Of a stretch of 60,619 nucleotides of DNA, positions 1,994-60,619 are shown one piece after another. The DNA is taken from the IMG/VR virus record IMGVR_UViG_3300045119_000430, positions 1 to 60,619 of that record; one strand, 5' to 3'. A program made the position numbers and the translations under genes. The notes under the pieces were generated by a model, which did not search any database, was not told the origin of the DNA, and saw only the letters and a program-made list of their open reading frames with translations. How positions within the stretch are numbered: position 1 is the stretch's first letter; each line of letters starts with the position of its first letter. The DNA is from a virus. Taxonomy: Duplodnaviria > Caudoviricetes.

Positions 1994-2731
1994 ATGAAAT
2001 GCCCAGCCTGCGGATCGGAGAGCGGCGTGATTGATTCGCGTCTCATCGATGAAGGCCGCTGCGTGACGCGGCGACGGGGGTGCGAGTGCGGCGCCCGCTG
2101 GACCACCCATGAGCGCAAGGCAACGCCCGTGAAGATCGCAACGCTCTCTCCTTGGATGCAGAAACGCTGGGGCGCTAACCCACTAAATGCAGGCGATCGC
2201 CGACCCGAAAACCCACCGCATGCGGCCCCTTCGACCACAACATACAGTGGGTTAAATGACCCGACGATCACACCGCATTCAGTGGGTAAGTCGGAAAACC
2301 CACCAAATGCAGTGGTTCGTCATGATCTGTCTGATTCCGGATCCGATCCGAAGTCTTCTCCCGCTCTCTCAGATCCGGCTCTGAGTCAGGATCTTGGAGA
2401 TGATCGCGCGAGGCCAGCGAAGTCAGCGCCATTCGTCTATCCCGCTGCCTTTGAGGCGTTCTGGTCAGGGATCACGTCGCCGCGCAGCAAGGGCCTGAAG
2501 TCTGACGCTTTGCGCGCGTGGTCAAAGAAGGGCAAGCCCGCGGCGGAGATCCTGATCCCGAAGTGGGGTGAGTATCTCTCGCAGGTCGGCGAATACCCCA
2601 AGGACGTGTGCCGCTGGATCGCTGCCCGAGGCTGGGAAGAGGAATATGAGGCCGCCCCGGTCCGTAGGTCAAACGGGGCATCCGGCAATGTCGCAGTGCT
2701 TGGGAATTTCCTCAGGAAGGAATCGAAGTGA
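1994..2731 (+). CDS. putative replication initiator with N-terminal NrdR-like Zn ribbon
   Basis: MKCPACG..VIDSR..RRRGCECGARWTTHE N-terminus; C-terminal FEAFW..KSDALRAW..RWIAARGWEEE typical of phage initiators; internal repeats; helicase-loader-like gene follows. Confidence 0.75.
   Translation: MKCPACGSESGVIDSRLIDEGRCVTRRRGCECGARWTTHERKATPVKIATLSPWMQKRWGANPLNAGDRRPENPPHAAPSTTTYSGLNDPTITPHSVGKSENPPNAVVRHDLSDSGSDPKSSPALSDPALSQDLGDDRARPAKSAPFVYPAAFEAFWSGITSPRSKGLKSDALRAWSKKGKPAAEILIPKWGEYLSQVGEYPKDVCRWIAARGWEEEYEAAPVRRSNGASGNVAVLGNFLRKESK
2180..2315. repeat. five 16-bp iteron-like boxes (CAC-N3-AT-N3-G[TG]); candidate replication origin
   Basis: Boxes start at 2180, 2213, 2235, 2270, 2300 inside the initiator gene; GATC-rich tract follows. 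Confidence 0.7.
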
Positions 2732-3333
2732 CGAAGCGCGAATCGTTCGTGTCGGCGATGGCGATGTTGAGCGGGGCGTTCAGCCGAATCCTGACCGAGG
2801 AGGCCGTGGCGGCCTACTGGCTTGTCCTGGAGGCCATCCCAGCGCCCGACCTAGCCATCGCAACGAAGCGGGCGCTGGCGGAGTGCCGTTTCATGCCAAC
2901 CCCGGCCGAGCTGCTCGACCTGGCCGGCGCGGGCGGTGCGCGGGCGCTAGCCGCCGAGACGGCGGAGGCATGGGGTGCCGTGCGCAGCGCAATGGACCGA
3001 CACGACTACACCACGTCGGTGGACTTCGGGCCGCTCGTGAACGCCGTGGTGAGTAACCTCGGAGGCTGGCAGTTTCTATGCGGCCGGTCGCTGCGTGACC
3101 TCGTGTGGGACCGGAAAAAGTTCGAGGAGCTCTATGCGGCCTTCCGGGCGAAGCCGGTTGCCCAACTGCCCGCGGCCGAGCCCTGTCGGGGAGCATTCGG
3201 CGGTGCCCCAGTCCCGATCGCCATCGGCGGCAGGACGCCCCCAAAGATGATCGGCGGTGCCAGTGGCGTGATCGATGTCGTTCACCGGCTCGCCGAGGAG
3301 AAGGCGCGGCCACCGGGCGGAGACGTGCCATGA
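2728..3333 (+). CDS. DUF6475-like putative helicase loader/inhibitor
   Basis: CRFMPTPAEL, AEAWGAV, SVDF..LGGWQFLC motifs; position after initiator. Confidence 0.65.
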   Translation: MTKRESFVSAMAMLSGAFSRILTEEAVAAYWLVLEAIPAPDLAIATKRALAECRFMPTPAELLDLAGAGGARALAAETAEAWGAVRSAMDRHDYTTSVDFGPLVNAVVSNLGGWQFLCGRSLRDLVWDRKKFEELYAAFRAKPVAQLPAAEPCRGAFGGAPVPIAIGGRTPPKMIGGASGVIDVVHRLAEEKARPPGGDVP

Positions 3334-3698
3334 CCGCCGGCCTCTTCGACAAGTTACCTAAAGCCGAGCCGCGAGGACGGAGGGCTGATACTGCCCAACG
3401 TCCGTTGACCGGCGTGAGGGAAAGCGCAGCCGACACCACCGCTATCGGAGGGGCTCCATTTGGGGAGCCTCGCAGTACCGAGACACGGCGGAGCGCAGCC
3501 GGGGGAGAAGTTTCGGCCTCCCCGGCGAACGTCGGCATTTTCAGGATCACGCGGGAATGGTCGTCGTTCGCGTGGCTCTGCGAGGAGCATGCAACGGCGC
3601 GTCTCGCGGAGCGGTGGACGCTCGAGCGAAGCGGCGACGTCCGCGGGTTTCCATGCGACGACTGCGAGACGCGGCGTCAGGCGGGAGCCTCTCTATGA
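3330..3698 (+). CDS. hypothetical protein
   Basis: ATGA coupling; C-terminal CEEH/CDDC motif. Confidence 0.5.
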   Translation: MTAGLFDKLPKAEPRGRRADTAQRPLTGVRESAADTTAIGGAPFGEPRSTETRRSAAGGEVSASPANVGIFRITREWSSFAWLCEEHATARLAERWTLERSGDVRGFPCDDCETRRQAGASL

Positions 3699-4252
3699 GC
3701 CGCCGCATCGGCCCCCACTGCGCTCCCCCCATCGACCCAGGGCAGGTGGCGCTCGTGTTGAGAGAGGCGGTGAGGAGAGCGAGGGCGGACAGGTGGACGT
3801 TGCTCGAAGGGCTGGTGATGTCGGTGGTGGAACAGCTGGAGCAGGGCAAGCGGCCGGCGCTGCCCAGGGCGACGACGCAAAGGAGCGGTGACCCATGCGA
3901 GATGTGAGGCGGCGAATTGTGTTCGCGTGTCGCATGGACGCGAGCGGAATAATGCGGTGGCGGGCGTCGGTGTTCGACGAACCGTCGATCAAGGGCGATG
4001 AGGGAACGACAGCACGCGAAGCTATCGCCCTCCTGATTCGCGACAACCAAGAGTTCTTCGGCGTGTTTCTCGACCTCTGGGTGCACATGCCCGACGAGAC
4101 AACCCCGGGCGAAGGGACAGTGCTACTGTGACCCGCCTCCAAGCCTCCACCACCGTCCGCTTCTACCGCCCTCCTAGCCCCTGGGGTGATGTGGCTGTTG
4201 TTGCTGCGATCATCGGAGCGGCGTGGGTGGCTGCGAGGGGGCTGGGGTTTCT

Positions 4253-5026
4253 GTGAGCTACGACCTTCGCTTCGGGGACTGCCTCCACGCGGGTGGAATG
4301 CCGGCAATGGCGGATCGATCGGTGGACGTGGTGGTCACCGATCCTCCGTACTCCGAGCATGTCCATTCGAAGTCTCGGCGCGGGCTAACCGTCACGCATG
4401 TCGGTGGCGCCAAGGACGAGATCTCGGAACGCCGCGACCTCGGCTTCGATTCGATCGCCCAAGACCAGATGGAATCCGCCGCCGATCAGTTCGCCCGTCT
4501 CGCCCGCCGCTGGGTGCTCGTCTTCTGCGATGTGGAGTCCTCGCACCTCTGGCGTGGGGCGCTTGTCAGCGCGGGCCTCGAATACCTTCGCACTGCCGCG
4601 TGGCTGAAGCTCGGAGGCGCGCCGCAGTTCACTGGGGACCGGCCGGCGGTCGGCTTCGAGGCAATCGTTGTCGCGCACCAGCCGGGGAAGAAGTGCTGGA
4701 ACGGTGGCGGCAAGGCGGGGATCTACTCGGTGCCCACGGCCATCGACCGTAACCGCAGCGGACTCGACGCCCGCGTCCACACAACCCAGAAGCCCGTCGC
4801 CCTCATGGAGGCCTTGGTGCTGGACTTCACCGACCCGGGGGAGACGATCCTGGATCAGTTCGCAGGCAGCGGGACGACGGGCGTTGCGGCGCTGCGCCTT
4901 GGGCGGGGATTCATTGGCTTCGAGCGCGACGAGAAGTACCACGCCCTCGCCACAGAACGCCTCGTCAATACCCGGGCTCTTCCTGTCGGCTACCACGGCG
5001 CTGTCGCACAGGGGTCGCTGCTGTGA
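4253..5026 (+). CDS. beta-class N6A/N4C DNA methyltransferase
   Basis: TDPPY, HTTQKPVALM, ILDQFAGSGTT. Confidence 0.93.
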   Translation: MSYDLRFGDCLHAGGMPAMADRSVDVVVTDPPYSEHVHSKSRRGLTVTHVGGAKDEISERRDLGFDSIAQDQMESAADQFARLARRWVLVFCDVESSHLWRGALVSAGLEYLRTAAWLKLGGAPQFTGDRPAVGFEAIVVAHQPGKKCWNGGGKAGIYSVPTAIDRNRSGLDARVHTTQKPVALMEALVLDFTDPGETILDQFAGSGTTGVAALRLGRGFIGFERDEKYHALATERLVNTRALPVGYHGAVAQGSLL

Positions 5027-6135
5027 AGCACGCCGACATCCGCGTAGGCGATTGCTGCGATCTCATGCGCGAGATGCCGTCCGACTCGGTCAACTGCGTC
5101 GTTACCTCGCCGCCCTACTGGGGCCTTCGCGATTACGGCGTCGCGGGCCAGATCGGACTGGAGACAACGCCCGAAGAGTACGTGTCGAAGATGGTTGGCG
5201 TCTTCAGGGAGGTTCGCCGCGTGCTGCGGCCCGACGGTGTGCTCTGGCTGAACATCGGCGACTGCTATGCGACGGGCGCCGGCAAGGCGGGCGAATGCCC
5301 GGGCGGCGGTGAACAGGGCACACGCTGGCGCGGCGAGGCGAATCGAATCCGCGACGACAAGCGAGGATACCGAGGCGAGCGGCTGGCCAACGGCCGAGGG
5401 GACCAACCGGCCATCCTGAGGGTTAAGACGCGGGCGCTCCGCGACGGCTCTCACTGCGGGAAGCACACCGCGATCGCCGCCATCGGTCCAATGACCCAGC
5501 CGAACCGAATGCCGATCTCTGGCCTGAAGCCGAAGGACCTGGTGGGGATTCCATGGCGGATCGCCTTCGCCCTCCAGGCCGACGGGTGGTGGCTGCGCTC
5601 TGACGTGATCTGGTCCAAGCCTAACCCGATGCCCGAGTCGGTCCGCGACCGCCCGACGAAGGCTCATGAGTACCTGTTTCTCCTCACGAAGAGTCAGGAG
5701 TACTTCTACGACGACAAAGCGATCCGAGAGCCGATGGCAAAAGCAGGCATAGAGCGGCAACGATACAATCTAAATTATTCTCAGCGTGCTTACATTGAAT
5801 CAGGGTCGCCACAAACAGGCGGCCGACGCAATCCAGCCCCGGACAATAGATCACATCGTAACAAGCGGTCCGTGTGGACGGTGGCAACGGAGCCCTATGG
5901 CGGATCGCACTTCGCGACCTTCCCGAAGAAGCTAGTCGAGCCGTGCATCCTGGCTGGCTGTCCTGCGGGTGGCGTCGTGCTGGATCCGTTCGGCGGAAGC
6001 GGGACGGTCGGAGAGGTAGCGGAAGTACTCGGGCGGCAATGGATCCTGCTGGAGTTGAACCCAGCCTATGCCGAGCTGGCGCGGAAGCGGACGTCGCAAT
6101 GTGGGCTGTTCGTGCCGCAACCGGAGGTCGCATGA
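5023..6135 (+). CDS. beta-class N4C/N6A DNA methyltransferase
   Basis: VTSPPYW, HFATFP, VLDPFGGSGT. Confidence 0.94.
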   Translation: MKHADIRVGDCCDLMREMPSDSVNCVVTSPPYWGLRDYGVAGQIGLETTPEEYVSKMVGVFREVRRVLRPDGVLWLNIGDCYATGAGKAGECPGGGEQGTRWRGEANRIRDDKRGYRGERLANGRGDQPAILRVKTRALRDGSHCGKHTAIAAIGPMTQPNRMPISGLKPKDLVGIPWRIAFALQADGWWLRSDVIWSKPNPMPESVRDRPTKAHEYLFLLTKSQEYFYDDKAIREPMAKAGIERQRYNLNYSQRAYIESGSPQTGGRRNPAPDNRSHRNKRSVWTVATEPYGGSHFATFPKKLVEPCILAGCPAGGVVLDPFGGSGTVGEVAEVLGRQWILLELNPAYAELARKRTSQCGLFVPQPEVA

Positions 6136-10408: not shown

Positions 10409-11008
10409 GTGCCGCAGAAGCTGACCCCACGCCAGGCGCGGTTCGTCGAGGAGTACCTCATCGACCTCAACGCCACCAAGGCCGCGGAGCGTGCGGGGTT
10501 CAGCGCCAAGACGGTCCACGTTCAGGGTCCGAGGTTGTTAGCAAATGTTAGGGTTGCCGAGGCCATCGCGGCGGCCAAGGAGAAGCGTCTAGCCCGGGTC
10601 GAGATCACCCAAGACAGGGTGCTCCGCGAGCTCGCCGCCCTGGCGTTCTCGAACCTGACTCACTTCGAGGTCGATGACTTCGGCAAGATCACGCTAGCGC
10701 CTGATGCCCCGACAAACGCCCATGCCGCCGTGTCGTCCATCAAGCACCGCATCACGAGAGACGAGGATGGCAACACGACCCGGGAAGTCGAGATCAAGCT
10801 CTGGGACAAGCCGAGCATGGTGAAGATCGCAGGCCGCCACACGAACACCCCCGGATTCTGGGACCGCATGGAGGTGTCGGGACCGGACGGCAAGCCGATC
10901 GAGATCCAGGAGCAGCGCGCAGCGGTCAACTCGAAGATGGAGGCCCTCTTCCGGGTGGCGGCGGCCAAGCGCGCAGAGATCGAGCCAGGGCCGAAGCCAG
11001 GGGAATAG
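10409..11008 (+). CDS. terS: terminase small subunit
   Basis: LTPRQARFVEEYLIDLNATKAAERAGFS..EIKLWDK. Confidence 0.93.
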   Translation: MPQKLTPRQARFVEEYLIDLNATKAAERAGFSAKTVHVQGPRLLANVRVAEAIAAAKEKRLARVEITQDRVLRELAALAFSNLTHFEVDDFGKITLAPDAPTNAHAAVSSIKHRITRDEDGNTTREVEIKLWDKPSMVKIAGRHTNTPGFWDRMEVSGPDGKPIEIQEQRAAVNSKMEALFRVAAAKRAEIEPGPKPGE

Positions 11009-11011
11009 CCG

Positions 11012-12388
11012 GTGGGCGTCCCTGCGGGGATAGAATTCCTGGCTCAGTTCGAATCCCTGGAGGCGTTCGACGCGCAGTTTGACACGGCCGATGAGGCAGC
11101 CGCCGCGCGCCGAGAGATCGCGGACGCCTGGCGCTGGGTCGCCCGCCCCGAGCAGCTCGAGCCCGCGAACGACAACCGAAGCCAGTGGCTTACATGGCTG
11201 ATCCTCGCCGGCCGAGGCTGGGGAAAGAGCCGCGTAGGCGCCGAGACGATCCTAAATTGGATCATCACGGGCCAATGCCGGCGGGTGGCCCTCGTCGCCC
11301 CGACATCGGCCGACGCTCGCGATGTCATGGTCGAGGGCGAGTCCGGGATCCTGGCTTGCTCGGAGCGCGCGCAGTTCCCGGGCCGGTACGAGCCGTCTAA
11401 GCGTCGGATCACGTGGCCGAACGGCGCGATCGCCACCCTGTACTCGGCCCAAGAGCCGGATCGTCTCCGCGGCCCCCAGCATGATGGGGCGTGGGCGGAC
11501 GAACTAGCCGCCTGGCACAACCCGCAGGCCGTCTGGGATCAGCTTCAATTTGGGCTGCGCCTAGGTCTTCACCCGCGGACTATCGTCACCACGACGCCCC
11601 GACCGCTGCCCATCATCAAGGCGCTGATCAAGGATCCTTCGGTCGCCATCACGAAGGGATCGACCTTCGACAATGCGCCCAACCTGGCAGCGTCGTTCCT
11701 GCGCGCCATCCGCAACGCCTACGAAGGTACACGCCTCGGCCGCCAAGAACTGAACGCCGAGATCCTGGACGACAACCCCGGCGCCCTCTGGCGGCAGGCG
11801 ATGATAGACGCCCTGCGCGTTCAGACAGCGCCGATGGAGATGCAGCGGATAGCCATCGCCATCGATCCTGCCGTCACCGCCAACGAGGACAGCGATCTCA
11901 CCGGCATGGTGTCGGGCGGCCGCGCGCCGTGCCGCATGCTACCGGCCTGCAAGGGGGAGGTTCACGCCTTCGTCTTCGACGATGAGTCGGGCATCTATAC
12001 CCCGTCCGAGTGGGCCAAGAAGGCCTGCACGACCTACCATGCCCGCCGAGCCGACCGGGTGATCGGCGAGGTTAACAACGGCGGTGACCTCGTGGAGGCC
12101 AATCTCCGCGCCAACGGAGACGCCACGGTCAGCTACCGGGCCGTCCACGCCTCCCGGGGAAAGATCATTCGAGCCGAGCCGATCGCCGCCCTCTACGAAC
12201 AGGGGAAGGTCCACCACGTCGGAACCCACGGCAAGCTCGAGGACGAGATGACCCAGTGGGACCCGCTCGCGGGGATGAGGAGTCCCAGCCGCATGGACGC
12301 CCTGGTCTGGCTGCTGACCGACCTGATGCTCGGGGAGGCCCGCGTCGGCGGCGCGCCCCGCGTACCGGGTGCTGGGCGCCGTATTTGA
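11012..12388 (+). CDS. terL: terminase large subunit
   Basis: Walker A AGRGWGKS, RGPQHDGAWADE, TTTP, nuclease IAIDPA..RMDALVW. Confidence 0.96.
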   Translation: MGVPAGIEFLAQFESLEAFDAQFDTADEAAAARREIADAWRWVARPEQLEPANDNRSQWLTWLILAGRGWGKSRVGAETILNWIITGQCRRVALVAPTSADARDVMVEGESGILACSERAQFPGRYEPSKRRITWPNGAIATLYSAQEPDRLRGPQHDGAWADELAAWHNPQAVWDQLQFGLRLGLHPRTIVTTTPRPLPIIKALIKDPSVAITKGSTFDNAPNLAASFLRAIRNAYEGTRLGRQELNAEILDDNPGALWRQAMIDALRVQTAPMEMQRIAIAIDPAVTANEDSDLTGMVSGGRAPCRMLPACKGEVHAFVFDDESGIYTPSEWAKKACTTYHARRADRVIGEVNNGGDLVEANLRANGDATVSYRAVHASRGKIIRAEPIAALYEQGKVHHVGTHGKLEDEMTQWDPLAGMRSPSRMDALVWLLTDLMLGEARVGGAPRVPGAGRRI

Positions 12389-12413
12389 GGGTAGGCGGGA
12401 TATCCCCCACGCT
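12385..12413 (+). promoter_or_regulatory. late promoter TTGAGG-N17-CACGCT with GGGATATCCC in the spacer (portal)
   Basis: 6 nt before in-frame GTG 12420. Confidence 0.65.
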
Positions 12414-12419
12414 CGCTCC

Positions 12420-14642
12420 GTGACCCCAGGAATGAAGGCGCGGGCGGCGACTCTTCGAACGCAGCTGCGCCAACTCCCAACGCAGAGCCTGATCGACCCC
12501 GACGACATCGGCGACATTATCGGGATCATGCGGCATCTCCGTCAGGGGACGCTGCGAGACGCCGCGCTTCTCTGCGACGCCATCGAGGGCGACGACCGCA
12601 TCAAGGCCGTGCAGGAGACGCGGGTAGGAAGTCTTCGGGCGACGTCGTTGAACGTGAAGCCGGCCGCCGACCGGTCATTGCTCGATTTGACCGATGGCGA
12701 AGAGCCGAAGCCCGACGCCGAACGGACGAAGCTCACGCAGCAACTGGCCCAGCAACTCGGCGGGGTCGACGACGTGCCGGGCGAGTGGGACCGCATCTTT
12801 CCTCCTGGCGTGATCGGCGACCTGTGTCGATGGGGGACTCTGCTGGGCATCGGCGTTGCCGAACAGATCTACCCGCAGTCCAAGCCGCCGTGGATACCTC
12901 GTCTGAAGATCTGGCACCCGCAGTTCATTCGTTGGGACTGGGCGCGCGACTGCTACCGCATCTTGACGGCGGATGGCGAGATCGATCTCCCTCGTCTCGA
13001 CGAGAACCCAAACGGCGACGGCCGCTGGCTGATGTGGTGCCCCTACGGCTACCGCGAGGGATTCAAGCGGGGGCTGATCCGCGCGATGGGCAAGCTCTAC
13101 GTGATGCGCCAGTGGGACGAGCGGGATTGGGCTCGCTGGAACGAGACCAAGGGACTCGGGATCGTCAAGGCGATCATGCCGATGACCGAGAACGAGGAGG
13201 TCGACCAGCAGTTCCTCAACGACATTTCGAATCGCGGCTCAGAGGCGGTGATCGCCGTCCGCAAGGGCGAAGAAGGCAACCAGTACGACATCGAGAACGT
13301 GTCCGACTCGGCCGGCGGCGAGGGATGGAAGTCGTTCCAGGAGTTCAAGCGGGCGCTCGACGTGGACATCGCAGTCCTCTGGCTCGGCCAGAACCTCACG
13401 ACCGAGAGCCCGTCGAACGGGTCGAGCTCCAAGTCGCTCGGCGAGGTCCAGCGCGCGACGAGCCTGGATCGCCTCAAGGTTGACGCTGGGATTGCGACCG
13501 CCGCCTACGACCAGGTGATCGTGCCGATGACGACCATGAACTACGGCGATCCGACGCTGGCCCCGCTGCCCGTCTACGTCACCGAGCCGCCGAAGGATCA
13601 ACTCGCCGAGGCGACGGCCATGAAGATGACCGGCGACGGCGTCACGGCTCTGAAAGGCGCTGGAATCCCGGTCGACGAGCGGGCGATCGGCGAAGACTTC
13701 GGCGTGCCGATGAAGACCGAAGAGCAAGCCGCCGCCGAGAAGGCCATCGCCGACGAGGAAGCCGCCGCGAAGATGCAGGCCCAGCGCGACCTCATGGGCC
13801 AGCAAAACGACACCCCGCCGAGCGCCGAGCAAGACCGGGCCAACCCGTCGGGCAAGGCAGCCCTGCGCGCAACGACGCCCGCGGCCTACCCACGCCGCAC
13901 CTTCGCTGGCCTTCCGGTCGCGATCGAGCACGCCGCCGGCACCACGCGAATCTGGCGCGACGCCGGCCCGAACGGTCAGACGATCGGCTCCACGAAGATG
14001 CTCCACGACTACGGGTTCATCGAGGGCCACATGGGGGCCGACGGCGAGGAGCTCGACGTCTACCTCGGGCCCGACGAGAACGCACCGAACGTCCACGTCA
14101 TCCACCAGAACAAGGCGCCCGACTACAAGTCCTACGACGAGGACAAGACGATGCTCGGCTTCGCCGGCGCCGACGAGGCCAAGGCCGCTTACATGGCTCA
14201 CCGGAACGACGGCGACCGGGCTATCCGCGGCATGTCGTCGATGCCTCTCGACCGCTTCAAGGCCAAGCTGAAGCGACGCACAGGGACCGGTCCGGTACGC
14301 GCCTCGGCGGTCGACGTGGACCGCACTACCGCAGCCCTGGTGGCCCTGGCGAGCAAGGCGGCGGTGAAGCCGCGCAAGGGGAAGGCATGCGACGCCGACC
14401 GCCTCACGGCCAACGCAACCCGCCTGGCGTCACGAGCGCTGGCGCCATACGTGACGGGCGTGCGCGGCCTGCTCGATGGCTTGGCGGACCACCCCGACCC
14501 GTTCGGTGAACTGAAAAAGCGCTTGGTCACCCACTACCGCAAGGCCGACCCGTCTCGGCTCGCAACGGTGGTGGAGCGCACGCGGGTGATGGCGCACATG
14601 GCCGGGCGGGCCGATGTCCACGCGGAGCACAGGTCGGCGTGA
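12420..14642 (+). CDS. Mu gp29-like (DUF935) portal protein with inserted inorganic-pyrophosphatase-like domain
   Basis: Follows terL; WLGQNLTTE..LGEVQ motif; insert DYGFIEG..GADGEELDVYLGP..YDEDKTMLGF at ~13902-14275. Confidence 0.85.
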   Translation: MTPGMKARAATLRTQLRQLPTQSLIDPDDIGDIIGIMRHLRQGTLRDAALLCDAIEGDDRIKAVQETRVGSLRATSLNVKPAADRSLLDLTDGEEPKPDAERTKLTQQLAQQLGGVDDVPGEWDRIFPPGVIGDLCRWGTLLGIGVAEQIYPQSKPPWIPRLKIWHPQFIRWDWARDCYRILTADGEIDLPRLDENPNGDGRWLMWCPYGYREGFKRGLIRAMGKLYVMRQWDERDWARWNETKGLGIVKAIMPMTENEEVDQQFLNDISNRGSEAVIAVRKGEEGNQYDIENVSDSAGGEGWKSFQEFKRALDVDIAVLWLGQNLTTESPSNGSSSKSLGEVQRATSLDRLKVDAGIATAAYDQVIVPMTTMNYGDPTLAPLPVYVTEPPKDQLAEATAMKMTGDGVTALKGAGIPVDERAIGEDFGVPMKTEEQAAAEKAIADEEAAAKMQAQRDLMGQQNDTPPSAEQDRANPSGKAALRATTPAAYPRRTFAGLPVAIEHAAGTTRIWRDAGPNGQTIGSTKMLHDYGFIEGHMGADGEELDVYLGPDENAPNVHVIHQNKAPDYKSYDEDKTMLGFAGADEAKAAYMAHRNDGDRAIRGMSSMPLDRFKAKLKRRTGTGPVRASAVDVDRTTAALVALASKAAVKPRKGKACDADRLTANATRLASRALAPYVTGVRGLLDGLADHPDPFGELKKRLVTHYRKADPSRLATVVERTRVMAHMAGRADVHAEHRSA

Positions 14643-48334: not shown

Positions 48335-48689
48335 GGCGAACGCCGACGAAGAAACCAACCGACTTGGCGGGGTTCATTGCGCGGGAACAGGAGCGGGCGT
48401 GGAACGCGCTGGAGCGGCACGGTCGCGAGCACAGGTGCGACATCGGAGACCAGTGCCCGCTTCGTCTGATGCTTCGGGACCTCTGGGCATCGTTCTACGA
48501 ACCGGGGATGAAATATATCCGCGTGCTTGATGCCCGCGAACTCGCTCTCCCGTCACTCCATCCCGAAGCCTACCGCCCAAGGTGGCGCCAACCCCTCATC
48601 CCGGCCCCGACGGCAACCCTCCCCGTCCAGGACGCCCCCCAGCAGCCGTTGGGGCCGGGATCTCTCGGCAACGAACAAAGGAGCACGTG

Positions 48690-49628
48690 ATGCCCCAGGA
48701 AGAGATCCAACTGGTCGACTACGAGACGCGGGAGCGGTGGCTTGCGGCGCGGTCGTCGGGAATCGGGGCGAGCGAATCGGCGGCGCTGTTCGACGCGTCT
48801 CCCTGGCACACGCTGATGAGCCTATGGGCGCTGAAGGTCGGAAAGGTCGATGGCGACCTAGGCGATGCGGAGTACCTCACGTGGGGAACGCTACTGGAGG
48901 AGCCGATCGCGAAGCGCTACGAACAGAAAACGGGGCGGCGCGTTTGGCAGGGCGGCCAGTTCGCGGTGGCGCAACACCCGTCGCTGCCGTTCATGCGCGC
49001 CACGCCAGATCGCTGGGTGATCGACGCGCCGGACAGAGGAACGCCCGGCCTACTGCAGATCAAGAACACCAACGCATTCCGCGGGCACGACTGGGACGAT
49101 GGGGTACCGCAGCACATCGAGATCCAGGTTCAGCATGAGATGGCGGTTACCGGCCGAGACTGGGCCTCTGTCGCGGTCCTCGTCGGTGGCTGCGAGTTTC
49201 GATCATTCGACGTCGAGCGCAATCCCGCGTTCATTGAGGAGCTTGAGGCCTCTTGCGCGTGGTTTTGGGACTTTGTCACGCGCCGCGAGCAACCGCCGAT
49301 CGACGGGTCGTTGCGCACCTTAGAAGCGCTGAAGCGGCTGCATCCGAAGGACTCGGGCGAACAGATCATGCTCCCCGAGGATGCGATCGGGTGGTTGGCG
49401 GCATTCGAGGCGGCAAAGGCTGACGCCAAGGCCGCCGAGGCGAACAAGACTGACGCGGAGAACCGGCTGCGAGACGCGATCGGAGACGCGAGCTACGCCC
49501 TTCTGCCCGACGGGCGGCGGCTGACGCTGCTGACGACGGAGCGCAAGGGCTACCAACCAAATTATGTGGATCCCACGACGTATCGGGTTCTTCGGCTCGA
49601 AGGGGCGAAGAAAGGAAAGCGACGATGA
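48690..49628 (+). CDS. YqaJ-like (lambda-exonuclease family) recombination exonuclease
   Basis: WLAARSSGIGASE, WGTLLEEPI, ATPDR, LQIKNT, QVQHEMAVTG. Confidence 0.92.
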   Translation: MPQEEIQLVDYETRERWLAARSSGIGASESAALFDASPWHTLMSLWALKVGKVDGDLGDAEYLTWGTLLEEPIAKRYEQKTGRRVWQGGQFAVAQHPSLPFMRATPDRWVIDAPDRGTPGLLQIKNTNAFRGHDWDDGVPQHIEIQVQHEMAVTGRDWASVAVLVGGCEFRSFDVERNPAFIEELEASCAWFWDFVTRREQPPIDGSLRTLEALKRLHPKDSGEQIMLPEDAIGWLAAFEAAKADAKAAEANKTDAENRLRDAIGDASYALLPDGRRLTLLTTERKGYQPNYVDPTTYRVLRLEGAKKGKRR

Positions 49629-50725
49629 GTGCTAATGACGGACAGGGAAAGATCATCACGGTCCCGGCTGGCAACGGCAGCGATGTCGCGCGGCCGACGC
49701 CGATCAACAACTTCCGCGATCTGCTCGAGAAGATGAAGCCGCAGATCGCGCTCGCGCTCCCTCGTCACGTCGACCCGTCACGGATGCTGCGGATCGTTCT
49801 GACGACGGTGCAGCGCACGCCGAAGTTGCTGGACTGCACGCGCGAGAGCTTGCTGGCGTGCATCGTCCAATGCGCGCAGCTCGGCCTCGAGCCCGACGGG
49901 TTGCTAGGACACGCCTACTTGATCCCATTCTGGAACAACAAAGAGAAGCGCCAGGAGTGTCAGTTGATCGTCGGGTACAAGGGGTTGCTCAAGCTCGCTC
50001 GCCAGTCAGGCGAGGTGTCGTCGATCTGCGCCCGCGTGGTGCATGAAAAAGACGAGTTCGACTACGAATATGGCCTCGAAGAGAAGCTCCGTCACCGCCC
50101 GAGCATGGAGGACGACCCGGGGCCGCTACAGTTCGCCTACGCGATCTTTTTTCTGAAGGACGGCTCCAAGCACTTCGAGGTGATGAGCTTCCGTGAGATC
50201 GAACGGATCCGCATGCGCTCCAAGGCAGCCGAGTACGGTCCGTGGTCCACCGATTACGAAGAGATGGCGAAGAAGACCGTGCTTCGGCGCGCGTCGAAGA
50301 TGTCGCCGGCGTCGATCGAAGATCGAATGGCCAAGGCGATCGCCATGGATGAACTGGCTGACGCCGGGCTTCCGCAGGGCCTCCCCGAACCGGAGGCGCC
50401 CGCGCCGGCCCCACAGCCGGAAGACAAGCCGCGTGAACTGCAACCCGAGAGGGAGACGGTCGATGATCTGGCCGCGAAGGCAAAGGCGAGACGCGAAGCC
50501 AACGCGCCGAAGCCCGCAGCCGCGCCCGCCCCGGCGGCTAAGCCGGCCGAGCCCGCCGACGCAATCAGCCCCGGGCCCGGCACCGCGAGCAAGCCCGCGC
50601 AGCGCACGCTGAGCATCCGCGTCGAGGGCGAGTCCGAAGAGGACCGCGCCGCCCGCGAGGCCGCCGCTCCTGGCCCTGACGAGTTCCCCGCCTCCCCGGC
50701 GTTCCGTCCGAAGGGAGGCGCGTGA
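49625..50725 (+). CDS. recT: RecT single-strand annealing recombinase
   Basis: AQLGLEP..GHAYLIPF, QLIVGYKGLLKLARQSG, PWSTDYEEMAKKTV. Confidence 0.94.
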   Translation: MSANDGQGKIITVPAGNGSDVARPTPINNFRDLLEKMKPQIALALPRHVDPSRMLRIVLTTVQRTPKLLDCTRESLLACIVQCAQLGLEPDGLLGHAYLIPFWNNKEKRQECQLIVGYKGLLKLARQSGEVSSICARVVHEKDEFDYEYGLEEKLRHRPSMEDDPGPLQFAYAIFFLKDGSKHFEVMSFREIERIRMRSKAAEYGPWSTDYEEMAKKTVLRRASKMSPASIEDRMAKAIAMDELADAGLPQGLPEPEAPAPAPQPEDKPRELQPERETVDDLAAKAKARREANAPKPAAAPAPAAKPAEPADAISPGPGTASKPAQRTLSIRVEGESEEDRAAREAAAPGPDEFPASPAFRPKGGA

Positions 50726-53309: not shown

Positions 53310-53737
53310 CCAGATCCCAGCTCGGCAACGCCTTGGCCATCGCGCTCTTCGCAACCATCGACAATCAAGGGAAATATGATCTGGATCAGGCCGGCGCAAC
53401 GTTCGCTCTCGCACTTGATCGTCTCGCTAAGCTCAGAAGAAAACGAGCCCGAGCCAAATCGATCCCCGATCCGCGCGACATCCGCTGGCGGTCAGTGGTC
53501 GAGCCGATCGCGGCCGAATATGGGCTCACGGTTGAAGAACTCCGCGCCCGACGGCGGAGCCCACACCTTGTTGTAGCCCGCAATGAAGCGATCTGGCGAC
53601 TGAGGCAATTGCAGCCGCCGATGAGCTATCCCGAGATCGCCAGGGCCGTGGGGCTGGCCAACCATACGTCGGCGCTCCATGGATTCAGGGTCTACGCCGC
53701 ACGTCTCGCCCGCGAGGCCGAGAATAAGGCCGCATGA
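53306..53737 (+). CDS. DnaA domain IV-like HTH protein
   Basis: YGLTVEELRARRRSPHLVVARNEAIWRL..SYPEIARAVGLANHTSALHG. Confidence 0.75.
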   Translation: MTRSQLGNALAIALFATIDNQGKYDLDQAGATFALALDRLAKLRRKRARAKSIPDPRDIRWRSVVEPIAAEYGLTVEELRARRRSPHLVVARNEAIWRLRQLQPPMSYPEIARAVGLANHTSALHGFRVYAARLAREAENKAA

Positions 53738-54276
53738 AGCCGCTCAACTCCGTCACCATCGCCAACCGCCGTCTCGGCCTCCTACGTCTCTACGAACGTA
53801 AGCGCATCGAGCAGGGGCTTCCGCCAGGCCCGATCGAGCGACCAGCGCCGACGACGCTGCCGAACAGCCGCCGCCTATCGGACGCCGAGATCGCCGCCGC
53901 CGTCGAGCCATTCCCGGATGTCGAGCGACCGAGAACGCGCGGAGAGTGCCGGGACGCCCCACGCCCTTGCCCGTGGTCATCCTGCAGGCATCACAACGCC
54001 TTCGAGGTCAGCCAGATCGGATCGCTCACTCCGGCGTTCCCTGGTGTCGAGCCATGGGAGATCCCCGAGACGTGTTCCCTCGATGCCGCAGACCGCGGGG
54101 GCATGACGCTCGAAGAGGTCGGCACCATACTGAACCTCACTCGCGAATGCATCCGCCAGACCGAAGATCGGGCGCTCCGCAAGATGAAGGCCGCCGGTGT
54201 CGACGTCCTAGGACCCCCGTCTGAGCACCCGATCGGGAACTACTGGAACACTGGCGGCGGCGACTCCCGCGACTGA
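53734..54276 (+). CDS. sigma-70 region-4-like HTH protein with Cys/His metal site
   Basis: RPRTRGEC..PCPWSSCRHH..ETCSLD..GMTLEEVGTILNLTRECIRQTE. Confidence 0.78.
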   Translation: MKPLNSVTIANRRLGLLRLYERKRIEQGLPPGPIERPAPTTLPNSRRLSDAEIAAAVEPFPDVERPRTRGECRDAPRPCPWSSCRHHNAFEVSQIGSLTPAFPGVEPWEIPETCSLDAADRGGMTLEEVGTILNLTRECIRQTEDRALRKMKAAGVDVLGPPSEHPIGNYWNTGGGDSRD

Positions 54277-54838: not shown

Positions 54839-55804
54839 ATGCAGCAGCTGGAGTTGAGGGGGATCGCGGAAGGCAGGTTGAGAGAATCGATAATGTGGTT
54901 GCTGGCTCATGAGTGCGACGGGGTAAGGGAGGAGACCTTGTTGCGGGACTACCAGGTCCGGGCGGATTGGTGCTTGCGCACCTTCGGAGATTGCCGCCTC
55001 GTGGAGTTGTGTGGGCGCAACGGCTACGAATGGATGCGCAGGGTGATCGCATCGAACAAGTCGAGCGACGAGCGGATGAAAAACGTCTCGATTAAGAAGC
55101 GGCTCCAGTTCCTGATCCGCGTGCTCAAGGTAGCAGCGAATCGAGAGTTCATCGTCCGGTCATCAATTCCGGAACTGCCACAGATCGCGAACGACGGTGT
55201 GCCAAAAGAGGCGTTCCACACCTACGATCAGTACAGGCGATTTCGATCCGCCCTTCCGTCGGGGCGCCATCGCATCTACACCGACCTCGGCTGGTGGACC
55301 GGCATGCGACGAGAGGACTTGGAGTCCACGCTAAAAGAACAGGTTGACCCGTGGCGGCCGTTCGTCGATGAGGCCGGCAAGACGATCTCGGTCGGCTGCT
55401 TCTGGGTCAGAAACCATAAGCGGCGCGATTTCCAGTCCTACTGGATCCCGATGGAGGCTGAATTTAGGGCGTGTGTGAAGGAGTTTTACGAGCAGCACCC
55501 AATGGCAGATGGCGACCTGATCACGGGCAAATTCTCGAAGCCATCGCGCTGGATGGATCCTGCTTCGCAGCGATCTGGAACGCCGCGGATAACGCCGCAC
55601 TGCTGGCGCCGCTCCCGGCAGACCTACCTTGAGACTATCGGGGTTGCGCTGAGCGACATCATGTATGCCCTGGGTTCGGCCAGTGTGGCAGTGAGCAAGA
55701 GGCACTATCTGAAGCCAACGCCGTCTACCCTGAGACGATTGATTCCCAGGTCCGTACCGACGGAAGACGGGCTGCCAGACCTCCCCGAGATGGGCATGGC
55801 GTAA
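54839..55804 (+). CDS. int: tyrosine recombinase/integrase
   Basis: WWTGMRR, TPHCWRR, ALGS..RHY; the second His/Trp position is Ser. Confidence 0.85.
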   Translation: MQQLELRGIAEGRLRESIMWLLAHECDGVREETLLRDYQVRADWCLRTFGDCRLVELCGRNGYEWMRRVIASNKSSDERMKNVSIKKRLQFLIRVLKVAANREFIVRSSIPELPQIANDGVPKEAFHTYDQYRRFRSALPSGRHRIYTDLGWWTGMRREDLESTLKEQVDPWRPFVDEAGKTISVGCFWVRNHKRRDFQSYWIPMEAEFRACVKEFYEQHPMADGDLITGKFSKPSRWMDPASQRSGTPRITPHCWRRSRQTYLETIGVALSDIMYALGSASVAVSKRHYLKPTPSTLRRLIPRSVPTEDGLPDLPEMGMA

Positions 55805-56009: not shown

Positions 56010-56384
56010 ATGCGTCCACGGCCTTCTAAGCCGCACGGCTCAAGTTTTCCAGCGGAGCCCCTGGCTCCCTCGCCTAACTGGATAAGGCACCGACCTTCTA
56101 AGTCGGCATCATCCGGGTTCGAGTCCCGGGGGAGCCACTGGCGAAAGTGGCGCCTCGTCGCCGCGCTCTTCGCGTTGGCTGGCATCGCAACGGCCTGCAC
56201 TTCGAGCACGGCCTTCGGACCATGCGTCGGCATCTCCGACGACCGCGACCCATCGCTCACCTACAAGGTCAGCGCCGGTAACATCTTCCTGGCGATCGTC
56301 TTCTCGGAGACGATCATCGTCCCGGTCGTCGTCATCGCTGACGAGGTGGCGTGCCCGGTCGGGCGGAAGGCGGTGTCCCCGTGA
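56010..56384 (+). CDS. putative lipoprotein; ORF spans the tRNA
   Basis: RBS AGAGGAG 6 nt before ATG; signal RLVAALFALAGIATAC; mature CTSSTAFGPCVG..ETIIVP..CPVG. Confidence 0.6.
   Translation: MRPRPSKPHGSSFPAEPLAPSPNWIRHRPSKSASSGFESRGSHWRKWRLVAALFALAGIATACTSSTAFGPCVGISDDRDPSLTYKVSAGNIFLAIVFSETIIVPVVVIADEVACPVGRKAVSP
56063..56137 (+). tRNA. tRNA-Arg (UCU), CCA not encoded
   Basis: Acceptor GGCTCCC/GGGAGCC, D-arm GCC..GGC, anticodon arm CCGAC-CTTCTAA-GTCGG, T-arm CCGGG-TTCGAGT-CCCGG. Confidence 0.92.
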
Positions 56385-59223: not shown

Positions 59224-59622
59224 AGAACCCGAAACGGACCCGGGCCGAGCGCGAGCGGCTGGGCCGTCAGTTCGCGGAATGGATGATGTTGCCGATCATC
59301 AGCCGAGCCGCGGGCGACGCCGGCCTTCAAGGCGATGCTCGCCTGTCGGCGGCGCTGGGCGAGATCGAGACGATCTCGGATCTCCATCACCTGCTCGGCA
59401 AGTCTCGGTGGCCACGCGCTCGGAGGTCCGCATGAACCACCGCCGATTCCATCCCCGCCGAGGTCAACCATTGCCACCGCGCATCGTTCAAGAGTACGGC
59501 GCCGACCAGGTCCGACACGCCCAGCTGCTCGACGCGCTCATGCGCCAGGGTCTAGGGCTGCACGATCTAACGGAGTTGATCGACCTTCGGGTCCGCACGG
59601 GCCGGGCACGGAGGGCGGCAAC

Positions 59623-60619
59623 GTGAGGTCACCGACCTTTCGCGGTTATCTCGCTGACAACGAGCTCGTCGTCGACAACTTCGCCGGCGGGGGTGGAGCG
59701 TCGACGGGGATCGAAGTCGGCCTCGGTGGCAATCGATCGCCCGACATCGCGATCAACCATTCGGCCGCCGCGATCGCGATGCATCGGGCGAACCATCCGA
59801 ACACCCACCACTTCTGCGAGGACATCTTCGACGTCGACCCGACCGAAGCGTGCGCCGGGCGTCCGGTCGGCCTGGCGTGGTTCTCGCCCGACTGCAAACA
59901 CTTCTCGAAGGCGAAGGGGACCGCGCCGCGCGACCAGGGGATCCGTGGCCTGGCCTGGGTGGTGATCCGCTGGGCGAAGGCGGTCAAGCCGCGCGTGATC
60001 TTCCTCGAGAACGTCGAGGAATTCGCCACCTGGGGGCCATTGGGCGACGACGGCCGGCCCGACCCGACGAAGCTCGGCGACACGTTCCGCGAATGGTTGG
60101 CGGCTTTGGTCGATTGCGGTTACCGCGTCGAGCACCGCCTGCTCGTCGCCGCCGATTACGGCACGCCGACCACGCGCAAACGGCTGTTTCTGATCGCCCG
60201 CTGCGACGGCGCGCCGATCGTCTGGCCCGACGCGACGCACGGACGAGGGCGCGCGACTCCGCACCGGCCAGCGTCAGAGATCATCGACTGGGCGCTTCCG
60301 TGCCCGTCGATCTTCTCGCGGAGCCGTCCGCTGGCGCCCGCGACGCTGAAGCGGATCGCGGCCGGGATTCGTCGGTACGTGATCGAGGCCGCTAACCCAT
60401 TCATCATGCCCGTGACCCATCAGGGGGGAGATCGCGGCAACGCGATCGGCGAACCGCTGCGCACGGTGACGGCGGCGCACCGGGGCGAGCTCGCGTTGAT
60501 CTCGCCGTTCATCGCCCCCGCGAAGACCTGGGGCGGGGGCGGCAACGGACCTCGATCGATCGAAGAGCCGATGCGGACAGTGACCCCGTCGAAGCGTGGT
60601 GAATTCGCGGTGATCGAAC
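59623..60619 (+). CDS. C5 cytosine DNA methyltransferase, N-terminal part (continues at position 128 onward via the overlap)
   Basis: VDNFAGGGGASTG (I), WFSPDCKHFSKAKG (IV), FLENVEEF (VI), TTRKRLFLIAR (VIII). Confidence 0.93.
   Translation, partial: MRSPTFRGYLADNELVVDNFAGGGGASTGIEVGLGGNRSPDIAINHSAAAIAMHRANHPNTHHFCEDIFDVDPTEACAGRPVGLAWFSPDCKHFSKAKGTAPRDQGIRGLAWVVIRWAKAVKPRVIFLENVEEFATWGPLGDDGRPDPTKLGDTFREWLAALVDCGYRVEHRLLVAADYGTPTTRKRLFLIARCDGAPIVWPDATHGRGRATPHRPASEIIDWALPCPSIFSRSRPLAPATLKRIAAGIRRYVIEAANPFIMPVTHQGGDRGNAIGEPLRTVTAAHRGELALISPFIAPAKTWGGGGNGPRSIEEPMRTVTPSKRGEFAVIE
60493..60619. repeat. 127-bp terminal direct repeat (copy of 1-127)
   Basis: Exact identity to window start. Confidence 0.97.

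Follow-up and report, generated by a model that had tools for sequence, protein, structure and literature searches.

A candidate replication origin inside a phage initiator gene, with dyad boxes resembling those of NrdR

The location of a replication origin inside the gene of its own initiator is a textbook feature of phage lambda. A similar arrangement is proposed here for IMG/VR record IMGVR_UViG_3300045119_000430, which is complete, measures 60,619 bp, has a G+C content of 65.9% and ends in direct terminal repeats; it was analysed over its whole length (hereafter, the window). We consider it probable that positions 2180-2405 of the window are a phage replication origin, placed within the linker-coding DNA of its own initiator gene (1994-2731) and read by a zinc ribbon of the type found in the repressor NrdR; this proposal is based on sequence evidence and on analogy with described origins.

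In lambdoid phages, the origin is reported to consist of iterons, each an inverted repeat, lying in the middle of the initiator gene next to a flank that is easier to melt; extra repeats add residues to a part of the initiator that does not bind DNA, and there are four iterons in lambda and six in Stx phages (PMC7466680). The oriII origin of Vibrio cholerae is described as GATC-dense and as containing iterons too, its firing being controlled by SeqA binding and by methylation (PMC2865523). As to NrdR, its boxes come as a pair 15-16 bp apart, and spacings of 14-18 or 24-27 bp are tolerated, the former range in experiments in vitro with four NrdR proteins (PMC12051234). Specificity of the Streptomyces coelicolor protein is attributed to D15 and R17, together with a couple of strongly conserved G:C pairs that lie 9 bp from each other within each box, and the NrdR contacts to the DNA backbone are made by R12, R26-R29 and R37 (PMC9110341). 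In Escherichia coli NrdR, E42 stabilizes the ribbon dimer with R27 and R29 (PMC12176259). In the literature searched, no paper was found that uses the term 'NrdR-like' and none, among the papers listed, that connects NrdR ribbons with phage origins.

The initiator gene and the gene downstream

The features of the locus are listed below. Scores out of 16 are agreements with acaCwAtATaTwGtgt, the NrdR box consensus quoted in a preliminary description of the window. Ranks refer to a position weight matrix (PWM) built from six E. coli NrdR boxes, independently of that consensus, and the genome background for box scoring consisted of the 60,604 16-mers of the phage record. L008 and L009 are metagenome contigs carrying homologues of the initiator (~53% and ~50% protein identity, respectively).

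1994-2731, + strand: initiator gene, 245 amino acids (aa); NrdR-type zinc ribbon, disordered linker, helical C-terminal domain (C-domain)
1994-2116, + strand: zinc-ribbon domain, residues 1-41; C3, C6, C30, C32; D14, R16, R26-R28, R35, E40
2180-2195: box 1, CCACTAAATGCAGGCG; right arm degenerate; consensus 9/16, PWM rank 10 of 60,604; aligns with box 1 of L008 and L009
2213-2228: box 2, CCACCGCATGCGGCCC; right arm degenerate; consensus 6/16, PWM rank 4,537 of 60,604; its L008 and L009 counterparts are full dyads
2235-2250: box 3, CCACAACATACAGTGG; full dyad; consensus 12/16, PWM rank 2 of 60,604
2270-2285: box 4, ACACCGCATTCAGTGG; consensus 10/16, PWM rank 111 of 60,604
2300-2315: box 5, CCACCAAATGCAGTGG; full dyad; consensus 10/16, PWM rank 24 of 60,604
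2321-2405: GATC cluster, six sites, lowered G+C; candidate unwinding and/or methylation-controlled element
2435-2638, + strand: C-domain, residues 148-215; predicted local distance difference test (pLDDT) 93-98
2728-3333, + strand: DUF6475 gene, 201 aa; its GTG start overlaps the initiator TGA; candidate helicase loader

The N-terminal domain of the initiator is an NrdR-type zinc ribbon, as judged from profile matches and from a structural model. PF22811 (Zn_ribbon_NrdR) matches residues 1-40 with an E-value of 2.8e-13 and 50 bits, compared with a cut-off of 27.2, and E. coli NrdR chains match the initiator in sequence with E 1.1e-4. In the AlphaFold2 model, which was calculated from a 26-sequence alignment, the ribbon has a pLDDT above 90 and is followed by a linker (about residues 60-145) with a pLDDT near 50 and by a confident helical C-domain. 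Foldseek aligned the ribbon with E. coli and S. coelicolor NrdR at a root mean square deviation (rmsd) of 1.1-1.4 Å over 43-46 columns, with 46-51% identity; in VIA, comparison with solved NrdR gave a Z-score of 5.4 and an rmsd of 1.2 Å for 43 aligned residues. The alignment equates D14, R16, R26-R28, R35 and E40 of the phage protein with D15, R17, R27-R29, R37 and E42 of NrdR.

No ATP-cone was detected in the initiator by the Pfam scan, and TIGR00244 reached 34.9 bits with a cut-off of 124.65, its match being limited to residues 1-42. The initiator is therefore not an NrdR and, lacking the ATP-cone, would have neither nucleotide sensing nor the tetramer that the ATP-cone mediates. A complex prediction with two copies of residues 1-50 (26-row alignment) scored 0.39, with the mark at 0.42 and controls at 0.00, a result that has no bearing either way on dimerization.

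For the initiator itself, the PHROG matches are to phrog_270, labelled 'replication initiation protein', with E 3.4e-4, and to phrog_9327, labelled 'primosomal protein', with E 7e-4. Among its 26 aligned relatives, phrog_270 is matched by 21, phrog_9327 by 17 and phrog_9474 by five (best E 1.5e-21, 3e-21 and 7.5e-21, respectively), and PF22811 is present in 22. At E <=1e-3 the initiator is matched by 271 representative proteins, in which full-length and single-domain matches are mixed; several among the best 150 of the 271 align near full length (220-260 aa). The C-domain has 508 related stretches in IMG/VR, often joined to other N-terminal domains, as would fit one module that binds the origin and another that recruits the replisome. 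Its structure matches in BFVD include proteins labelled 'replisome organizer', DUF1376 proteins and, with E 4e-4, a 'RepA-like replication initiator'; matches to PDB folds are weak and helical (G39P, Z 4.5; DnaD-like, Z 3.3). By its PHROG and BFVD matches, the C-domain belongs to phage families labelled as replication initiators. The Pfam scan of the initiator at E <=0.1 gave no match to the lambda O family, for which no profile-profile comparison was made, nor to SPP1-type initiator families, DUF1376 included. Among genome contigs, the sole match was to the C-domain, in a Leptospirillum metagenome-assembled genome (27% identity). In BFVD, phage proteins are already auto-annotated as 'NrdR-like N-terminal domain-containing'.

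The TGA stop of the upstream open reading frame (ORF) abuts the initiator ATG (GTGAATG). The product of the downstream gene matches PF20081 (E 5.7e-8) and phrog_10105, and its AlphaFold2 model has a pLDDT of 91. The top structural match of its N-domain (residues 3-64) is SPP1 G39P, with Z 7.4 and rmsd 1.9 Å over 61 of 67 residues, 1.4 Z units above the next match; in Foldseek, the top row was lambda P bound to DnaB, with a non-significant E of 0.39. In L008 and L009, too, the gene next after the initiator is that of DUF6475, and no match to DnaB_C was found anywhere in the phage genome. This context gives moderate support to an initiator and loader pair that would recruit the host helicase. 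The G39P match also suggests a function for DUF6475, which is a domain of unknown function.

The box array, its conservation and the GATC cluster

The preliminary description had reported five 16-mers resembling NrdR boxes inside the initiator gene, spaced 33/22/35/30 bp from start to start, the third of which would agree with the quoted consensus at 12 of 16 positions. All five are present at the coordinates given there and with that spacing, and the score of box 3 was reproduced. Box 3 is the sole 16-mer with 12/16 among the 60,604 of the record; at least 10/16 is reached at 17 positions, four of them in this region. The array corresponds to codons 63-108 of the initiator ORF, and the edge-to-edge spacers are 17, 6, 19 and 14 bp, to be compared with the 14-18 or 24-27 bp that NrdR tolerates (PMC12051234). 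The repeats exceed what chance would give: the motif CCAC...AT.CAG has three copies in the 60,619-bp genome, all in the box region; AACCCAC has five, three of them in the box region; and.CAC...AT...G... has 15, five of which are the boxes.

The quoted consensus string was not found in any paper of the literature searched, and the scoring was calibrated on E. coli boxes instead. In the regions upstream of nrdAB, nrdHIEF and nrdDG, the boxes score 10-14/16 against the quoted consensus, at positions and in pairings that agree with those published; the functional box 2 of nrdAB, with central AG, scores 10/16 (PMC12176259). Scoring with an NrdR PWM against the genome background, which had been suggested as a check, placed boxes 1-5 at ranks 10, 4,537, 2, 111 and 24. 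The corresponding ranks are 9, 4, 4, 1 and 2 of 4,425 16-mers in L008 and 8, 5, 4, 1 and 2 of 7,104 in L009. The PWM scores of the boxes range from -7.7 to 13.5, compared with 16.8-21.9 for the E. coli boxes, the latter being self-scores and thus somewhat inflated.

The second check suggested was the conservation of the boxes in homologous genes, and five boxes were found in both L008 and L009, in the same order and relative places, spaced 33/22/33/23 bp (edge-to-edge 17, 6, 17 and 7 bp) with a GATC cluster after them. Aligned at the DNA level, the three loci agree in the box arms and vary in the box centres and in the linker around them. The set of 15 boxes, five from each of the three loci, has C2, A3, C4, A8, C11 and G13 invariant, A12 and G16 in 14 and C7 in 13 of the boxes; its consensus is CCAC-NN-CA-NN-CAGTGG, with the half-site CCACTG. 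The right arm is degenerate in four of the 15, namely, box 1 of all three loci and box 2 of the window.

C4 and G13, which are the counterparts of the G:C pairs read by NrdR, are present in 15/15 boxes. C occupies positions 7 (13/15) and 11 (15/15), both of them T positions in NrdR boxes; among the six boxes from E. coli, T predominates at positions 11 and 7 (5/6 and 4/6, respectively). The central AT occurs in all five window boxes, with T9 present in only 8/15 overall, and the box ends (positions 1 and 16) are C/G, compared with A/T in NrdR boxes. The A/T-rich core of the NrdR box, at whose central AT the DNA kinks, is not found in the 15-box set. On the basis of these sequences, what appears to be retained of the NrdR operator is its arms and its geometry, and not the A/T-rich core. 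The proposal that domain and site were co-opted together, also made in the preliminary description, is a reasonable inference and plausible because C4 and G13 are invariant and because the base-reading D and R are kept in the ribbon.

In L009, a frameshift after about residue 155 interrupts the initiator homologue (2863-3593), and its boxes and GATC cluster are undamaged; the copy may be decaying, or the assembly may be wrong at this point. The only further gene with zinc ribbon and C-domain that emerged from the subgroup scans is that of L025, a distant member, whose ribbon is without the D-S-R motif and which has no match to CAC-N10-GTG. At L025:2150-2320 there are instead CAACC repeats every 10-14 bp, followed by nine GATC within 76 bp. 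Iteron and ribbon residues would thus have changed together, a covariation between D-S-R and CAC-N10-GTG that rests on one contrasting case, L025. Since L008, L009 and L025 all have repeats followed by GATC sites, the layout is common to the window and to 3/3 other zinc-ribbon loci for which DNA is available.

As regards the coding frame, the codon phase at the first base is 0 for boxes 1, 2, 4 and 5 and 1 for box 3, so that one DNA word is translated as TTTYSG in box 3 and as NP(L/P)xA in other copies; boxes 3 and 4 of L008 are likewise out of phase with the remaining boxes. The G+C content of third codon positions (GC3) is 0.46 in the iteron part and 0.39 in the GATC part, compared with 0.74 and 0.75 where the two folded domains are encoded, and it is at least 0.72 in all 75 genes called by composition. 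Overall, the 230 bp from 2176 to 2405 have 53.9% G+C, within the lowest 0.4% of windows of the same size. As far as sequence can tell, the boxes are DNA elements, not a peptide repeat.

After the boxes, GATC sites lie at 2324, 2340, 2345, 2372, 2390 and 2402, that is, six within 79 bp; the cluster had been noted in the preliminary description, which counted five. Six GATC per 85 bp occur nowhere else in the genome, where clusters of at least five number two and the background is 0.81 per 85 bp (599 sites in the genome). The stretch 2316-2400 has 52.9% G+C, compared with 65.9% for the genome, and falls in the lowest 2% of 85-bp windows. In the GATC part, all seven Asp codons are GAT, compared with 250/877 (28.5%) in the called genes genome-wide, and GATC arises from GAT-C and, once, from GGA-TCC. 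Similar clusters lie after the repeats of L008, L009 and L025. In the wider C-domain family, a GATC cluster in the top 5% of the locus's own 200-bp windows was found at 4/81 loci (L008, L009, L025 and L029).

As a separate observation, the 599 GATC sites are about three times the number expected from base composition (roughly 190 by simple arithmetic), and the phage has three DNA methyltransferase genes. It was also observed that stand-alone NrdR-like zinc-ribbon ORFs (50-153 aa, some with a helix-turn-helix-like tail) are frequent in viral contigs (L002-L006, L010, L014-L023), and that an NrdR-like box scoring 11/16 is found upstream of two stand-alone D-S-R ribbons, at -33 in L006 and at -90 in L015. 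Such stand-alone ribbons may serve the phage as regulators, or they may modulate host NrdR.

Origin function and alternative explanations

If the region 2180-2405 is an origin, the following course of events can be envisaged. The NrdR-type ribbon, probably as a dimer, would bind each 16-bp dyad box, with D14 and R16 reading the C4 and G13 pairs as D15 and R17 do in NrdR; the boxes would resemble NrdR boxes because the domain reading them is homologous to the DNA-binding domain of NrdR. The boxes lie about two or three helical turns apart (22 or 33 bp); with spacings near these values the bound proteins would therefore be on one face of the DNA, and an O-some-like complex could build up. This complex would strain the adjacent GATC-dense stretch of lower G+C, where the DNA would open, and the methylation state of the GATC sites may control firing, as at oriC and the Vibrio origins. 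The C-domain and the translationally coupled DUF6475 protein would then load the host replicative helicase, the phage encoding none.

Several observations weigh against this interpretation. Boxes 1 and 2 of the window are weak, with degenerate right arms, box 2 having only 6/16 and rank 4,537. In the ribbon, two of the backbone arginines of NrdR are not kept (R12 is replaced by G11 and R26 by T25), and the second zinc knuckle is CxC (C30, C32), compared with the CxxC of NrdR. The initiator's own PHROG matches are weak, and 'replication initiation protein' is an annotation label; the loader assignment is founded on a Z of 7.4, which is middling for a domain made of helices, and on a non-significant Foldseek row. 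The putative unwinding stretch still has 53% G+C and is not AT-rich in absolute terms, and the GC skew of the phage genome gave no origin signal. Conservation covers three other zinc-ribbon loci (L008, L009 and L025), of which L008 and L009 are close kin. The possibility that the GATC cluster characterizes the C-domain family as a whole was also considered and was rejected, given the 4/81 loci mentioned above.

A highly improbable explanation is that the repeats are a by-product of a proline-rich, repetitive linker peptide and resemble NrdR boxes by chance. Linkers across the family are indeed proline-rich and repetitive, and boxes 1, 2 and 5 encode the similar peptides NPLNAG, NPPHAA and NPPNAV; however, box 3 of the window and boxes 3 and 4 of L008 are in another frame and encode unrelated peptides, and the arms are conserved between loci where centres and linker vary. 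Neither would a peptide repeat be expected to lower GC3 to 0.39-0.46 from the 0.72 or more of the called genes, to form GATC from both GAT-C and GGA-TCC, or to have as one of its boxes the one 16-mer in 60,604 that scores 12/16. We also think it improbable that the boxes are transcriptional operators, with the ribbon protein, as an NrdR-like repressor or activator, regulating early transcription from inside its own gene and the origin lying elsewhere. NrdR is a repressor (PMC9110341), short stand-alone NrdR-like ribbon ORFs of 50-116 aa, which BFVD labels as transcriptional regulators, are common in viral contigs, and two of them have the 11/16 box at -33 or -90 from their start. In the present gene, by contrast, the ribbon is fused to a phage-initiator C-domain that is itself widely combined with other DNA-binding N-termini, and five phased dyads and then a low-G+C GATC cluster, both within linker-coding DNA and with a loader-like gene after them, make up the layout of an origin. 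In addition, no promoter-like site was found on the + strand between 1200 and 3500, the one match being on the - strand (2672-2643).

Cross-talk with the host, which had also been put forward in the preliminary description, appears unlikely: the boxes would bind host NrdR, the dATP/ATP sensor, which would gate replication, or the phage ribbon would act on NrdR itself or on host nrd operators. In likeness to NrdR boxes, the five rank among the top sequences of the genome, the spacer between boxes 1 and 2 is 17 bp in 3/3 loci, inside the tolerated range of 14-18 bp (PMC12051234), and even the functional box 2 of E. coli nrdAB scores only 10/16 (PMC12176259). Moreover, R27, R29 and E42 of the dimer interface are retained as R26, R28 and E40. 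The pair with the 17-bp spacer, though, is the weakest of the window (9/16 and 6/16), and box 3, which scores best, is separated from the boxes on either side by 6 and 19 bp. The PWM scores (-7.7 to 13.5) stay below those of the E. coli boxes (16.8-21.9), C is found at positions 11 (15/15) and 7 (13/15) where T is usual in E. coli, and the phage has neither a gene for ribonucleotide reductase (RNR) nor an ATP-cone. An extended form of this idea, to which we assign a small likelihood, is that the NrdR ribbon was exapted twice in phages, for origin recognition and, in this ribbon and in the many stand-alone phage ribbons, for pairing or competing with host NrdR, so as to de-repress host RNR during infection; dATP-loaded NrdR on the origin boxes would then tie initiation to the deoxynucleoside triphosphate (dNTP) pool. 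Competition with host NrdR is conceivable because the ribbon keeps the dimer interface and the base-reading residues. An origin inside the initiator gene, read by the ribbon, is the interpretation adopted in the comparison below.

Genome setting and comparison with known systems

The phage is a temperate tailed phage, and the genes outside the locus include the following.

59335-60618 joined with 1-813: C5 DNA methyltransferase, spanning the record ends
4223-5026 and 5023-6135: two N6/N4 methyltransferases
10409-14642: small and large terminase, portal
48582-50725: RecE/RecT
54839-55804: integrase
56063-56138: tRNA-Arg

The best matches of TerL reach only ~52% identity and come from phages of several phyla, among them phages of Brevundimonas and Microcystis. 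Neither an RNR gene nor an ATP-cone was found anywhere in the phage genome. The DnaA box TTATCCACA does not occur with one mismatch or less in the genome, and at two mismatches it occurs 36 times, compared with 51 in shuffled sequences; a DnaA-dependent origin is therefore not indicated. Four of these 36 two-mismatch 9-mers lie within 565 bp (1725-2289), none having fewer than two mismatches. A small protein (53734-54276), encoded upstream of the integrase gene, contains a Sigma-70 region 4 domain (Pfam, E 2.5e-8). Just before the initiator gene, an HNH-endonuclease-like ORF (1518-1733; phrog_119, E 3.6e-10) overlaps, in a different frame, an unknown 129-aa ORF (1604-1993), which is the one whose stop abuts the initiator ATG; gene calls within 1300-2000 are uncertain because GC3 is low there.

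Should the proposed origin function be correct, the locus would be a natural case of a transcription-factor domain and its operator core being reused together for replication. It also defines a family, that of the 271 representative matches given above. A ribbon without ATP-cone, accompanied by 15 natural site variants, also offers a handle on how NrdR ribbons read sequence, and the speculative idea that host dNTP sensing is coupled to replication of the phage becomes directly testable.

Dam and SeqA belong to gammaproteobacteria. The locus shares with E. coli oriC and with oriI and oriII of V. cholerae a high local density of GATC; unlike those origins, it belongs to a phage with 66% G+C, and a role of methylation here is only an inference. 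Likeness to SPP1 G38P/G39P and to the 'replisome organizer'/DUF1376 initiators is suggested by the BFVD matches of the C-domain and by the similarity of the DUF6475 N-domain to G39P (Z 7.4), and is weak (E 1e-4 to 1e-2, Z below 8, helical domains).

With NrdR, the initiator shares a homologous ribbon in which the D and R that read bases, R37, E42 and all but one of the four arginines of the RRRR motif are kept; it differs in being without ATP-cone and in the CxC form of the second knuckle. The boxes are, like NrdR boxes, 16-bp dyads with CAC/GTG arms, invariant C4 and G13 and, in all five window boxes, central AT. Unlike them, they begin and end with G/C (positions 1 and 16), show C in place of T at positions 7 and 11 and have a core that is not A/T-rich, and five of them stand inside the coding region of a replication gene, whereas NrdR boxes stand as a pair at an RNR promoter, and this in a phage without an RNR gene.

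The comparison with ori-lambda (gene O, O-some, P loader) is the one that bears on novelty. Here, as there, inverted repeats lie in the middle of their own initiator gene, are flanked by a region of lower G+C and are encoded where further copies would lengthen a part of the protein that does not bind DNA, and a loader-like gene comes directly after the initiator gene. Unlike in ori-lambda, the DNA-binding domain is a 41-residue NrdR-type zinc ribbon, the sites are five 16-bp boxes, and the flank has 53% G+C with six GATC and no classical AT-rich tract. The locus had been put forward as the best candidate for an undescribed system in the window; this does not hold for its architecture, which is that of a lambdoid origin. 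The lambdoid type of origin is already known, and what appears to be new, in the literature searched, is the proposed use of an NrdR ribbon as the origin-binding domain.

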